Shown in pieces: positions 49,179 to 52,229 of a DNA stretch of 56,326 nucleotides. The notes under the pieces are model-generated. The model worked only from the letters and a program-made list of their open reading frames with translations. It was not told the origin of the DNA and made no database searches. Every line of letters starts with the position of its first letter. Position 1 is the stretch's first letter. Source of the stretch: a virus; IMG/VR virus record IMGVR_UViG_3300016665_000747, positions 1 through 56,326 of that record. One strand, given 5' to 3'. The position numbers and the translations under genes are program-made.

Positions 49179-49254
49179 ATTTTATTTTTATAAAATATTG
49201 TTGAAATGATGCGTTATTTATGTTTTTTTAGAAAAAACTAATTTAATTATATAG
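49179..49254 (+). repeat. 76-nt upstream cassette copy 1 (promoter/5' leader)
   Basis: 75/76 identical to 51318-51393. It ends 9 nt before the ATG of 49264. Confidence 0.9.
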
Positions 49255-49263
49255 AGATTATTT

Positions 49264-51171
49264 ATGTCTAAAAGTGTTGATGTAGATTTTGTATTAAAAG
49301 CTTGCGAAAGAGCAGAATCAGAGTTAGGAAGGGCAAGTAATCAAGATATTACGGTTCTAGTTGGTCCTACAAGAGCTGGAAAAAGTACGTTAATAAATTA
49401 TTTATTGGAACACAAGCTTGAACTTAAAAAAACTAAAAACGGTCCTGAGTTTAGTACAACAGCAGGTGGTGCAAAAATATTTCATGGAGTAGAATCTGGT
49501 ACATCGTTTCCTGTTTTCTGTGGTAATCTAGGAGATAGACAACTATGGGATATTCCAGGTTTAAATGATACTGCTGGTGGTACTAATGAATTGTCAAACA
49601 CATTTTATATAATAAATTTGCTAAAGAGAGCAAGTAGTGCGCAAGTTTTTTTAGTTATAGATTTTCCTTCTCTTAATGATCCAAACCCTAATGCGTTCCA
49701 TAAATTCTTAAATAGTGCAGTAAATACTTTTTCTGATTTAAGTAACTTTCAATTTTATTTTACGAAAGTTCCAAAAACAGTACCAGATCCAAATGATCCT
49801 GATGAGAGAATAGATTTAAAAGACTCATATATTTCAGAAAAGATAAAAAGAATTAAAGAAAGTGTAGACAAAGTAGGTACAAATTATACAACTGGGAATC
49901 AAACTAAGGTTAAAGAATTTCTTGCTAGTGTTATTGAGAATAAAGAATGGAAAATATTTTCTTTCCCAACTAAAGCAGAATATGAAGCACTAGTTTATAA
50001 ACCAGTAAGTACTACTACTCTTCAGTCAGTTAAGGGTTCTCCATCAATTCCTAAAAGTAAATTAACAGAAGTTGAACTTTCTATTTCGTCTGATATTAAA
50101 GATGCTCTAACAACCAAGCAAGGTGAGATGATACTTCAATATAGAACAAAAGCTGAAGAAATAGTTAAATCTGTATCTGGTGAGTATACTACAAAAATCA
50201 ACTCATCAGATTTGGCTACTTTGAAAAAAATTCATGAAAAATTAGGAGATGGAGCAAAGTCATTTAAAGAAAAAAAACATATTGAAGCTTTAAAGAAACT
50301 TGCTGAAGGAATAAGTCAAACAATTGATACTCAACAACTAATTCAGTTAGAGAAGAGTATTGCGGATATACAAAAACTGTTACCAGCACCTACTACTGGT
50401 CAAACATCACAAGAAACTCCTGCAAAAATATTGGAAAAAGAATTATCTCGTGAATTTACAACGGTATCTAAGTCGATACAGACAAAAGAAAATGGAATAC
50501 ATGACACAAATTATGAGACAGCCAAAACAGCAAAAACAAACGCAATAACTCAAAAACAAAAAGATATAGATGCATGTAAGGATGGTTGGTGGACGGGAGT
50601 AAAAAAGTTTGGAGCTGGAACAGCGGGAGCTGTTGGTGGTCTTGTTGCAGCACCTCTAGTGGGTGTTGTTGGAGCAGTAGAAGGAGTAAAAGGGAATAAA
50701 GAGGCTGGCATCACTAATTATGATGATTCCGTTGCTACAAAAGTAGTTAAAGCACCTGTATCAGCTGTTAGTGGAGTAGCTCTAGGTCTAGTAGCGAGCG
50801 CTCCTGGGTTTGCTTTAATGGCTGTTGAATCGGTAACAGACAACACTAGAGAGAAATTACGGAAAGAGAAGGCAGGTTTACAAACAGAACTAGATGGAAT
50901 AACAAAAACTGCATCATCATTATCACTTATTGACTTTAGTATTGATGGAGCAAGTTCTTCTGGAACAAACAGAGAAGTTAGCTGTATATTAGGGATGGAA
51001 TATGAGAATGAAATATTAAATTATCCTGAAGTATTAAAGGTTTTAACAGATAGTTTAGCTATAAATTATTCTGATGTTTTAGATAAGGTTGGTGGTTTTG
51101 ACCAAGAATTTGTTAGAGAGGCTTGTTTGAGTGGGAATGTAGAGTTATTAGAAGAATGCTTTGGTAATTAG
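49264..51171 (+). CDS. P-loop GTPase-like protein with coiled coil and Gly-rich membrane hairpins
   Basis: G1 VLVGPTRAGKSTLINYL, G3-like LWDIPGLNDT, no clear NKxD motif. Two hydrophobic G/A/V-rich segments follow (FGAGTAGAVGGLVAAPLVGVVGAV; VSGVALGLVASAPGFALMAV). Confidence 0.55.
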   Translation: MSKSVDVDFVLKACERAESELGRASNQDITVLVGPTRAGKSTLINYLLEHKLELKKTKNGPEFSTTAGGAKIFHGVESGTSFPVFCGNLGDRQLWDIPGLNDTAGGTNELSNTFYIINLLKRASSAQVFLVIDFPSLNDPNPNAFHKFLNSAVNTFSDLSNFQFYFTKVPKTVPDPNDPDERIDLKDSYISEKIKRIKESVDKVGTNYTTGNQTKVKEFLASVIENKEWKIFSFPTKAEYEALVYKPVSTTTLQSVKGSPSIPKSKLTEVELSISSDIKDALTTKQGEMILQYRTKAEEIVKSVSGEYTTKINSSDLATLKKIHEKLGDGAKSFKEKKHIEALKKLAEGISQTIDTQQLIQLEKSIADIQKLLPAPTTGQTSQETPAKILEKELSREFTTVSKSIQTKENGIHDTNYETAKTAKTNAITQKQKDIDACKDGWWTGVKKFGAGTAGAVGGLVAAPLVGVVGAVEGVKGNKEAGITNYDDSVATKVVKAPVSAVSGVALGLVASAPGFALMAVESVTDNTREKLRKEKAGLQTELDGITKTASSLSLIDFSIDGASSSGTNREVSCILGMEYENEILNYPEVLKVLTDSLAINYSDVLDKVGGFDQEFVREACLSGNVELLEECFGN

Positions 51172-51224
51172 ATTATCTATAAAGGCTTATTTTAAGCAGC
51201 TATGAAATGGGTTAGAGTAGTAGG

Positions 51225-51259
51225 AAAAAGACAGGGTATTATAACCTGTCTTTTTTTTT
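51225..51259 (+). terminator. Rho-independent terminator
   Basis: aaaaagacagg-gtattataa-cctgtcttttttttt: a GC-containing stem gacagg/cctgtc extended by A/T pairs, followed by 9 T. Confidence 0.8.
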
Positions 51260-51317
51260 ATGCTTGAGATATAAGAAAACCTTTCATTACAAAGGTTTGT
51301 CTTGGTAAGAGCTATAA

Positions 51318-51393
51318 ATTTTATTTTTATAAAATATTGTTGAAATGATGCGTTATTTATGTTTTCTTAGAAAAAACTAATTTAATTATATAG
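51318..51393 (+). repeat. 76-nt upstream cassette copy 2
   Basis: See 49179-49254. There is a single T/C difference, and it ends 8 nt before the ATG at 51402. Confidence 0.9.
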
Positions 51394-51401
51394 GAGTGTT
51401 T

Positions 51402-52229
51402 ATGGCCAAAAGTAGTAGCCAAGGTTGGGCATTAGATAGAGAAGGAGACGCTGAAAGGAATCAAGCAGCTAAGCAAAGAAAGTACGAAGAAGCCAGATTA
51501 AAGTTTGAGGAAGCAGAGAGGGTAACAACGGATGAGTCTGATAGGGCTACTTATAGAGATCACCAAGCATTAATGCTACAAAAGCTTGGGGATATTTTAC
51601 ACAGTAATGCTGATTACACTGGAGCGATTCAGAAGTATGACGCGGCAATAGCTTTAACCAATGATAAAGCATACCATGTTGATAAAGCAAATTCCTTAAT
51701 AGAATTAGATAGATATCAGGATGCGATTACTTCATCCGAAGAAGCATTAAGGTTAGATAGTGATTATAATCTTGCTAAAGATATTAAAGCAACGGCACTT
51801 TGTAAACAAGGTTGGGCATTAGACCAAGAGGGAATTGCTGAAGGGAATCAAGCAACTAAGCAAAGAAAATATGAAGAAGCCAGGTTAAAGTTTGAAGAAG
51901 CAGAAAGGCTAACAACGGATGAGTCTGATAGGACTCTTTACAGAAAGAACCAAGCATTAATGCTACAAAAGCTTGGGGATATTTTAGATGAAATTGGCTC
52001 TACTATCCAATTACTAAGTGATATTGAGTATGATAATCCATTGCTTAATGATTCTAATTTTTTACAGTTATTTACTAAGACTTATGGAATGTCTGCTACG
52101 TCTCGTTTAATTGATCTAACTAGTGTATTAATTGAGGATCATAGAGAGGAGTTAAAAGAAATAGTATCCGATCCTGGAGCTATTGAGATTCTTGGTAATT
52201 TAATAGGAGAACAATACGATTTTAGTTGA
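51402..52229 (+). CDS. TPR-like repeat protein with internal 61-aa duplication
   Basis: The ATG at 51402 lies 5 nt after aggag. TPR-like helices are present (YTGAIQKYDAAIALTNDKAYHVDKANSLIELDRYQDAITSSEEALRLDSDY). A duplicated block is described in the findings. Confidence 0.55.
   Translation: MAKSSSQGWALDREGDAERNQAAKQRKYEEARLKFEEAERVTTDESDRATYRDHQALMLQKLGDILHSNADYTGAIQKYDAAIALTNDKAYHVDKANSLIELDRYQDAITSSEEALRLDSDYNLAKDIKATALCKQGWALDQEGIAEGNQATKQRKYEEARLKFEEAERLTTDESDRTLYRKNQALMLQKLGDILDEIGSTIQLLSDIEYDNPLLNDSNFLQLFTKTYGMSATSRLIDLTSVLIEDHREELKEIVSDPGAIEILGNLIGEQYDFS

Follow-up and report, generated by a model that had tools for sequence, protein, structure and literature searches.

A shared leader as the probable constant 5′ module of a mosaic GTPase-TPR locus in a Megaira-type phage-plasmid-like element

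A constant leader in a modular locus

The DNA analysed here, referred to as the window, is the whole 56,326-nt contig of IMG/VR record IMGVR_UViG_3300016665_000747. It carries two consecutive genes on the plus strand, one encoding a 635-aa large GTPase (49264..51171) and the other a 275-aa tetratricopeptide repeat (TPR) protein (51402..52229), each headed by a near-identical leader. Very probably, the leader serves as a constant 5′ module in a modular locus that undergoes recombination. The best overall explanation, to which we assign a probability of about 0.6, is that this 5′ module sits on genes which have swappable bodies and are tagged with a common C-terminal domain (CTD), with the following inferred roles. 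On circular ~56-kb phage-plasmids of Candidatus (Ca.) Megaira, the slot that follows the partition genes would hold a small tandem array of genes, all beginning with the 5′ module, and an array unit would consist of constant leader, variable body, constant linker and CTD, 3′ untranslated region and terminator. In the window, the bodies would be a TPR protein and a GBP/IRG/atlastin-like GTPase that has glycine-rich membrane segments. The leader would give both units the same translation start and, since a strong terminator stands before copy 2, probably supplies a promoter or operator as well. The GTPase and its TPR partner would be made together, and the locus would encode fast-evolving host-directed (or competitor-directed) factors, if the CTD is an export or targeting module.

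The sequence-only reading had described segments 49179-49254 and 51318-51393 as identical at 75 of 76 positions and as placed next to start codons. Both points were confirmed, copy 1 ending 9 nt before ATG 49264 and copy 2 ending 8 nt before ATG 51402. For the TPR gene, ATG 51402, with a GGAG in front of it, is a more likely start than the GTG at 51396 chosen by the open reading frame (ORF) finder. The core 23-mer occurs at only two sites in the window even with 3 mismatches allowed, as compared to 0 expected in shuffles. Similarity runs past the 76 nt, though weaker, through the ribosome-binding site (RBS), the ATG and codons 2-4. From the alignment, the repeated unit is taken to be ~97 nt, comprising the 76-mer, RBS, ATG and M-(S/A)-K-S codons, and over this full unit the two copies in the window are identical at 89 of 97 positions. 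Copy 1 (49179..49275, plus strand; M-S-K-S) is delimited by sequence identity and by orthologues in the sister elements L075, L085 and L084, and copy 2 (51318..51413, plus strand; GGAG RBS, M-A-K-S) by its likeness to copy 1.

The leader was found 5′ of both genes in the sister elements L075-L080, L085 and L084. Seven leader copies could be aligned over ~97 nt, from ATTTT... to ...ATG-(G/T)C(T/C)-AAA-AGT. The best-conserved block, AAAATATTGTTGAAAT (49184..49207 in copy 1 and 51323-51346 in copy 2, plus strand), was invariant in 7/7 copies. It contains an imperfect dyad, ATTTyNAyAA-AATA-TTGTTGAAAT, the symmetry of which is weak and not robustly detected. With low confidence, this block is a candidate operator or UP/-35-like region. 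Within one element, identity between the leader of the GTPase gene and that of the TPR gene ranged from 86% to 99% across lineages (83/96 in L075 and 92/97 in L085). The sequence-only reading had named as its own refutation that the 76-mer be merely a part of a larger recent segmental duplication; it is not, as shown by the sharp boundaries of the unit and an arrangement kept in diverged elements. An independent assembly, Logan SRR6423794 contig L002 (2123 nt), breaks inside both leader copies, starting at the single variant base of copy 1 and ending in copy 2. Such breaks are expected for a repeat longer than the assembler k-mer, and the gene is present in this second data set.

Between the two genes stands an intrinsic terminator (51222..51258, plus strand) with a 14-bp stem, a 9-nt loop and a U-run, which was supported by folding (dG -16.3 kcal/mol, z -4.6, a stability reached by 0/200 shuffles) and has conserved counterparts in L075, L085 and L084. 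The strong terminator of the sequence-only reading was thereby borne out; with its loop of 9 nt it had escaped a pattern scanner.

Mosaic structure and gene conversion

A full HMMER scan of 1.84 billion representative proteins yielded 532 relatives of the GTPase, where a word-indexed search was insensitive (5 and 8 matches). The best relative, P0006 (701 aa), begins with MAKS, ends in a CTD nearly identical to that of the window and is 33% identical overall. Its gene is present on 21 metagenome contigs, L075-L080 among them. Contigs L075-L080 have the order 115-aa flank gene, GTPase gene, 229-nt spacer, 275-aa TPR gene and a gene like the RNA polymerase alpha C-terminal domain (αCTD), and then continue like the window, with genes for p87, CopG, HU, porin and terminase. 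In a third lineage, L085, a split GTPase (155+491 aa) is followed by a 699-aa TPR gene. The fourth lineage, L084, has a CTD-ending gene and a terminator, then the leader, and then a window-type GTPase gene with a premature stop. The plasmid of Ca. Megaira polyxenophila NDG2 carries two tandem genes in the same slot, which are tandem paralogues with identical N-terminal halves.

Window positions 48713-49275 and 50927-52243 showed 85-93% nucleotide identity to L075/L085, and the 1.65-kb body of the GTPase gene between them (49276..50926, plus strand) had no nucleotide match in L075/L085, with a sharp 3′ breakpoint at TTATTGACTTTAGTAT. At the nucleotide level the variable body shows no similarity to the gene that the sisters carry in this slot; the proteins are 33% identical overall, as given above. 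The constant 3′ module which follows (50927..51171, plus strand; ~91% nucleotide identity to L075) encodes a linker (IDFSI..DGASSSGT) and the helical CTD (MEYENEILNYPE...CLSGNVELLEECFGN). Since the constant ends are conserved around an unalignable body, the locus is a recombining mosaic, and the alignments indicate that homologous recombination within the constant ends swaps the bodies between elements.

The two leaders of the window resemble each other (89/97; 75/76 in the core) more than they resemble every other copy (82-84/97). They also share states found in no other copy, for example GATGCGTTATTT and an extra A in the A-run. At ~14% expected divergence, one difference or none in 76 sites would arise about once in 7,000. 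The window-specific shared states and the excess identity together point to gene conversion, which homogenised the two leaders of the window. Such a signature of concerted evolution would also be left if the leader were a neutral by-product, that is, if a tandem duplication had been followed by divergence or replacement of the bodies, with the 5′ ends kept alike by gene conversion and serving as an ordinary RBS only. The NDG2 paralogues with their identical N-terminal halves, the tandem arrays of L090, L088 and L087, and the failure to detect any motif or RNA structure in the leader all suit this account. We nevertheless consider it unlikely. The unit boundaries are the same in four lineages despite within-element identities of 86% to 99%, copy 2 lies after a strong terminator, so that some start signal is needed in the 143 nt left before the TPR start, and purifying selection acts on the TPR gene.

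The variable slot and the distribution of the leader

The sequence-only reading had taken both genes for moron-type cargo, and the place they occupy in this mobile element of a symbiont is indeed an accessory slot of variable content, which differs among sisters. In every related element the slot is bounded on the left by a conserved 131-aa gene (48732..49127, plus strand), which has a helix-turn-helix-like segment; the slot extends from there to the CopG-like and 191-aa genes. In related elements it holds MazF/PemK-type toxin-antitoxin pairs, pentapeptide proteins, small proteins and a resolvase, and in pPCS109 a peptidase, glutathione synthase, dioxygenases and an ABC transporter.

The leader itself proved to be confined to one type of locus. 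The 76-mer, the GTPase gene and the TPR gene were absent from 66+ related phage-plasmid loci, and blastn-short with the repeat against 72 loci revealed no further copies. The exact 23-mer was absent from IMG/VR and GTDB genomes, where a degenerate 31-mer covering all known variants was also without match. Blastn of the intergenic region against PLSDB gave chance AT-rich matches only, and the exact 20-mer had two chance matches in JGI metagenomes (L073 and L074), with similarity limited to the 20-mer. The search for more copies of the 76-mer, proposed along with the sequence-only reading, thus returned none at the nucleotide level, and copies at orthologous loci were recovered only by way of protein homologues.

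These results bear on the proposal of the sequence-only reading that the repeat is an autonomous, portable promoter/leader cassette which can be placed before unrelated moron genes and co-regulates them. The near-identical copies directly upstream of two start codons, the terminator between them and the nature of the slot as a hot-spot for cargo do agree with it. However, the leader was seen at one locus type only, always before one gene family and never before other gene types, and it is absent from the 66 related loci and from PLSDB, IMG/VR, GTDB and JGI. In addition, the duplication enters the coding sequence, the genes share the CTD, and a promoter consensus is lacking. A portable cassette is therefore improbable.

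The repeats could also be cis-acting DNA sites, either a parS-like centromere of the adjacent ParA or targets of a site-specific recombinase (attC-like), as they lie just downstream of the ParA, p134 and p131 genes and form direct repeats flanking a single gene. We regard this as highly improbable, because there are two long copies instead of an array of short iterons, the copies are always fused to RBS, ATG and codons, and sister elements with a different ParA keep the leader. An integron-type cassette was rejected, as no attC-like hairpin was found in the leader and no integrase in the flanks.

The 635-aa protein resembles large GTPases

Pfam MMR_HSR1 matched the 635-aa protein with 25.5 bits (cut-off 21.9). 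Its residues divide into a head (1-270) and a helical stalk (276-452). The P-loop GPTRAGKST (residues 34-42, 49363-49389) agrees with the G1 Walker A pattern GxxxxGK[ST] and is invariant in the alignment with wasp sequences described below; T80 (G2) and D96-I-P-G99 (G3) are likewise invariant across the window and wasp sequences. The switch-II/G3 motif DIPG is encoded at 49549-49560, as part of WDIPG (49546-49560). At the G4 position, the window protein has TKVP (49762-49773), without the usual Asp of [NT]KxD. The Leptopilina proteins also have TKVP, and allele P0006 has TKVD. With TKVP in place of TKxD guanine specificity is not assured, and from these sequences nucleotide specificity may differ between alleles. 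Two Gly/Ala-rich hydrophobic segments, putative membrane-inserting hairpins (residues ~441-476 and ~493-523; 50584..50832, plus strand), are centred near residues 463 and 510, where model confidence is low. The P-loop, the DIPG motif and the two hydrophobic stretches, all of which had been read from the sequence earlier, were thus recovered, and the stalk is helical in the model.

AlphaFold2 run on a 58-sequence alignment gave a mean pLDDT of 79, as compared to 48 with a 5-sequence alignment. Residues 1-450 were modelled with pLDDT of ~90, and residues 450-521 and 546-576 with low confidence. The top Foldseek matches in the PDB were GBP1 (membrane-bound, 4e-7), Toc34, RNF112, Irga6, MxA, atlastin-1, dynamin and mycobacterial IniA. 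E-values for GBP1, Toc34, Irga6, MxA and atlastin lay between 4e-7 and 1e-3, with low global TM-scores of 0.15-0.24 on the query and identities of 9-16%. The protein thus models as a GBP/IRG/atlastin-like large GTPase from the neighbourhood of the dynamin superfamily. It shares with the dynamin superfamily and the GBP, IRG, atlastin and Toc proteins a P-loop head and a long helical stalk, with membrane segments after the stalk as in atlastin and mitofusin, and differs from them in the TKVP at G4, the glycine-rich hairpins and the extra CTD. None of the Pfam models of the GBP, IRG, atlastin, Toc and dynamin families scored above cut-off, and a PDB sequence search returned a P-loop peptide match only. 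The NCBIfam model alph_xenorhab_A (XaxA-like) aligned with residues 307-507 at 24 bits against a cut-off of 125, in a segment of low model confidence. An alpha-pore-forming toxin of XaxA/ClyA type was not confirmed, since this score is below cut-off and no such toxin was among the top 50 Foldseek matches.

In a database of 5.8 billion proteins, the only named relatives were proteins of Leptopilina wasps (E 6e-14 to 9e-11). These are ~490 aa long and align over head and stalk, with identical G1 (TRAGKSTLINYL), G3 (WDxPGf) and TKVP; they carry signal peptides and are without the glycine-rich hairpins and the CTD. A report on Leptopilina heterotoma describes 'prokaryotic-like, intronless GTPases' in the venom vesicles (MSEV) of this wasp (PMC6945029). 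The link to these MSEV GTPases is by genus, and the accessions matched here are not equated with the proteomic SmGTPases. Other close relatives of the window protein lie in compact, same-strand, bacterial-looking arrays.

A common C-terminal domain and a TPR partner

Both proteins of the window are closed by a helical CTD of ~60-65 aa, which AlphaFold2 modelled as compact (pLDDT ~95) behind a linker of low confidence. Its consensus is C-x-I-F-S-x-x-x-I-E-Y-D-N-P-I-L-N-Y-P-E...V-I-D-K-V-x-x-F-D-x-E-F-V-x-E-V-C-L-S-G-N-V-E-L-L-Q-E-C-F. The CTD had no match in Pfam or among PDB sequences and is previously undescribed. It also ends proteins with quite different front parts, namely TPR arrays, coiled coils and other GTPases (P0015, P0017, P0022, P0038, P0048, P0065, P0068, P0093, P0121 and P0142). 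Tandem paralogue arrays were found in L090, L088 and L087; L090 has two GTPase genes with CTD-coding repeats, and L087 (GCA_013558295.1, contig JACCDN010499100.1) has a tandem row of four TPR genes, of which two or more end in the CTD. The contig numbering of GCA_013558295.1 suggests a large, fragmented and probably eukaryotic assembly, and L087 probably comes from a Rickettsiales-like symbiont in that sample.

The second gene was confirmed as TPR-like, as the sequence-only reading had it, by a TPR_2 match of 36.0 bits (cut-off 27). It contains an internal 185-nt duplication (51415-51599 and 51802-51986, 87% identical), the unit of which is present 5-6 times in L085. Its dN/dS of 0.26 in comparison with L075 places it under purifying selection. 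The TPR gene downstream of the broken GTPase alleles of L084 and L085 stays intact, and in L085 it has grown to 699 aa by amplification of the repeat. The last ~70 aa of the TPR protein (IEYDNPLLN...GAIEIL; 52014-52226, plus strand) form a diverged copy of the CTD, which was the best non-self match, among 7153 ORFs, of a CTD profile built without it (E 0.018).

A 773-aa protein encoded in NDG2 joins these parts. Its N-terminus is 27% identical to the GTPase head of the window, its middle and end match the TPR protein of the window (27% over 242 aa, E 6e-14), and its last 60 residues are 63% identical to the C-terminus of the window GTPase. The CTD copy of the TPR protein falls inside the contiguous alignment with the 773-aa protein. 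Thus GTPase, TPR and CTD form one polypeptide in NDG2, which is Rosetta-stone evidence that they work together. The two genes had been called otherwise unrelated apart from their leaders; this is wrong, in view of the shared CTD, the shared first codons and the fusion in NDG2.

Possible role of the encoded proteins

By analogy with known effector families, the CTD most likely acts as a shared module by which the proteins are recognised for export or targeting. That the proteins are exported, host- or competitor-directed factors is the likeliest reading, put forward tentatively, its chances being slightly short of even. It is suggested by a conserved C-terminal tag on varied bodies, by the tandem arrays, by the TPR partners and by the secreted relatives in wasps. 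Alternatively, the GTPase-TPR pair may act inside the bacterium, in defence, superinfection exclusion or plasmid addiction, as a dynamin-like membrane GTPase with a TPR sensor. MazF/PemK and Phd-type modules occupy the same slot in sisters, bacterial dynamin-like proteins of IniA type are among the fold matches, and hypervariability would fit an arms race with mobile elements. We find an intrabacterial role rather unlikely, as the PADLOC defence models matched nothing but the P-loop, with 14.9 bits to mad8, the nearest relatives with a name are secreted proteins of a wasp genus with 'prokaryotic-like' GTPases in its venom vesicles, and the CTD is found on many TPR-only proteins in tandem arrays, which is typical of effector repertoires. 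A more far-reaching combination, in which leader and CTD would be handles for cassette exchange by homologous recombination on Megaira phage-plasmids, the CTD (YDNPILN...CLSGNVELLQECF) would be a new export/translocation domain of a Rickettsiales effector repertoire made up of GTPases, TPR proteins and coiled-coil proteins, and the GTPase family would be the bacterial source of the Leptopilina venom-vesicle GTPases, is doubtful when all three parts are taken jointly.

Expression signals and evidence against the proposed explanation

The terminator stands 143 nt upstream of the start of the TPR gene, and the leader makes up two thirds of this interval. Given the strong, conserved terminator and the purifying selection on the TPR gene, a new start of transcription within the 143-nt interval is most likely. 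Whether the start lies in or just upstream of the leader is, from the sequence, evenly balanced. An A/T-rich 5′ half followed by the AAAATATTGTTGAAAT block looks, we infer, like an UP-element/-35 region or an operator. The sequence-only reading had given each gene its own copy of promoter and leader; the leader copy stands, and the promoter part is not supported, no σ70-type consensus having been found inside.

Several observations weigh against the explanation of a constant 5′ module on CTD-tagged genes with the roles given above. A scanner found no σ70-type -35/-10 pair with 16-18 nt spacing on the plus strand of either copy, and a relaxed scan gave only weak 3/6 + 4/6 candidates (TTTATT-18-TGaAATGAT and TTGTTG-15-TATGTT). 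No acceptable -10 was found 16-18 nt after the AAAATATTGTTGAAAT block, and the extended -10 motif GTGTTATAAT of the clear promoters of this element is not in the leader. The leader had no Rfam match at E<=1 and no stable RNA structure, being less structured than shuffles (folding z +0.4 to +1.5), and the aligned copies folded at -3.5 kcal/mol without a single compensatory pair. Over their whole length, the orthologous intergenic regions share ~95% identity, and this uniformity leaves no footprint that would single out a functional sub-site. The leader was seen in four element lineages only. Some GTPase alleles are broken, with a stop at codon 93 in L084 (L084 502-780) and the split into 155+491 aa in L085 (7522-9476), so that selection on the GTPase gene is not uniform. 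The CTD has no known homologue in Pfam or among PDB sequences, and its export role is argued by analogy. Lastly, the toxin-antitoxin modules in the slots of sisters fit a defence/addiction island equally well.

A riboswitch or other structured RNA leader was rejected on the folding, covariation and Rfam tests. An AU-rich region kept open for translation initiation agrees better with the unstructured RNA.

In sister elements, a 170-aa protein with the RNA polymerase alpha C-terminal domain (PF03118) is encoded directly after the TPR gene (L075 4454-4966, also in L077-L080); tblastn gave no match to this αCTD-like gene in the window. This αCTD-like protein could be a transcription factor for adjoining genes with A/T-rich, UP-like leaders. 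A second repeated upstream pair in the window (16364-16424 and 20285-20345; 61 nt, 77% identical) contains the extended -10 GTGTTATAAT or GTGATATAAT and precedes the genes at 16425 and 20502, which adjoin the patatin-like phospholipase gene. The GTGTTATAAT motif also lies upstream of the terminase gene (window 91-100). It seems usual for this element to carry promoter regions in repeated form.

Comparison with known systems

The erp/ospE-F loci of the Borrelia cp32 prophage-plasmids have an 'upstream homology box', a conserved 5′ non-coding region with the first codons, and bodies shuffled by recombination. The locus described here is similar, being a variable locus with a constant 5′ region and first codons on a phage-plasmid of a host-associated bacterium. 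The Borrelia erp genes encode lipoproteins with a conserved signal peptide, and their operator proteins are known; in the window, by contrast, the constant coding part is the CTD and the bodies are a GTPase and a TPR protein. Bartonella Bep effectors are encoded by tandem modular genes with variable N-terminal parts and a C-terminal BID domain, which is a type IV secretion signal. Tandem arrays in alphaproteobacteria with a variable front and a conserved helical C-terminal domain are common to both, although no sequence similarity of the CTD to BID was found.

The comparison with the APSE phages of Hamiltonella defensa, made in the sequence-only reading, is fair as an analogy. There also, one slot in a conserved symbiont phage backbone holds unrelated cargo alleles swapped between strains. 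The backbone of the window is unrelated to APSE and plasmid-like, and we know of no report of APSE cargo genes with a common leader and a common terminal domain. The eukaryotic association module of Wolbachia phage WO contains TPR/ankyrin-type and toxin-like genes, with a latrotoxin C-terminal domain shared with arthropod venom proteins. Phage WO and the element in the window are alike as Rickettsiales phages with TPR-type cargo and one domain in common with arthropod venom proteins. They differ in that the shared part in the window is the GTPase head (Leptopilina), and the CTD is without detected eukaryotic counterpart.

By these analogies, the locus is a variation on a known theme, with conserved upstream regions as in Borrelia cp32 erp genes and a constant terminal domain as in Bartonella Beps. 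Its interest lies in the clean mosaic, in a CTD not described before and in the connection with wasp GTPases; that of the leader itself is modest. If the proposed explanation is true, the CTD would be a sequence tag for listing candidate secreted or targeted proteins of Megaira-like symbionts from metagenomes, and a bacterial relative of the Leptopilina GTPases borne on a phage-plasmid would make the origin of the wasp genes testable by phylogeny. The locus would also be a clear example of a symbiont phage-plasmid which holds expression signals and a terminal domain constant and swaps the working part.

The element carrying the locus

The ends of the window share a 21-nt direct overlap (1-21 and 56306-56326), so it is probably circular, with a size of ~56.3 kb. 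Its products include the terminase large subunit (TerL), portal and tail-fibre proteins, ParA and a helicase of DnaB type, together with a patatin-like phospholipase, a porin, an MT-A70 methylase and a PD-(D/E)XK protein. Gene by gene, the window is in synteny with CP113869.1, the 64-kb 'plasmid unnamed2' of Ca. Megaira polyxenophila NDG2, which was deposited as a circular plasmid, and structural proteins of the two are 84-99% identical at the amino acid level. It is partly syntenic with pPCS109, and AP017967.1 is a further syntenic plasmid of Ca. Megaira polyxenophila. A terminase search of IMG/VR gave 66 related loci, with TerL 73-95% identical in all but two. Ca. Megaira belongs to the Rickettsiaceae and comprises symbionts of protists. 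Reading from its genes, the element combines circularity, packaging and virion genes, and partition and replication genes, as phage-plasmids do, and on this gene content it is assigned as a phage-plasmid-like element of a family found in Megaira-type Rickettsiaceae. No published description of this phage-plasmid family was found in a literature search.

Two other regions of the element may be mentioned. Just upstream of the terminase gene, on the minus strand, lie a gene for a Gram-negative porin (Porin_4; 55036-56244) and one for a PD-(D/E)XK (Rpn-like) protein (54124-55023). The porin is 83-95% conserved in nearly all related elements; for a phage-like element, it is unusual to keep such a gene. 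Four large ORFs (724, 387, 667 and 505 aa) at 21337-28210, also on the minus strand, had no Pfam or PHROG match; the 724-aa ORF is without match in the NDG2 plasmid, where the 387-, 667- and 505-aa ORFs are kept.

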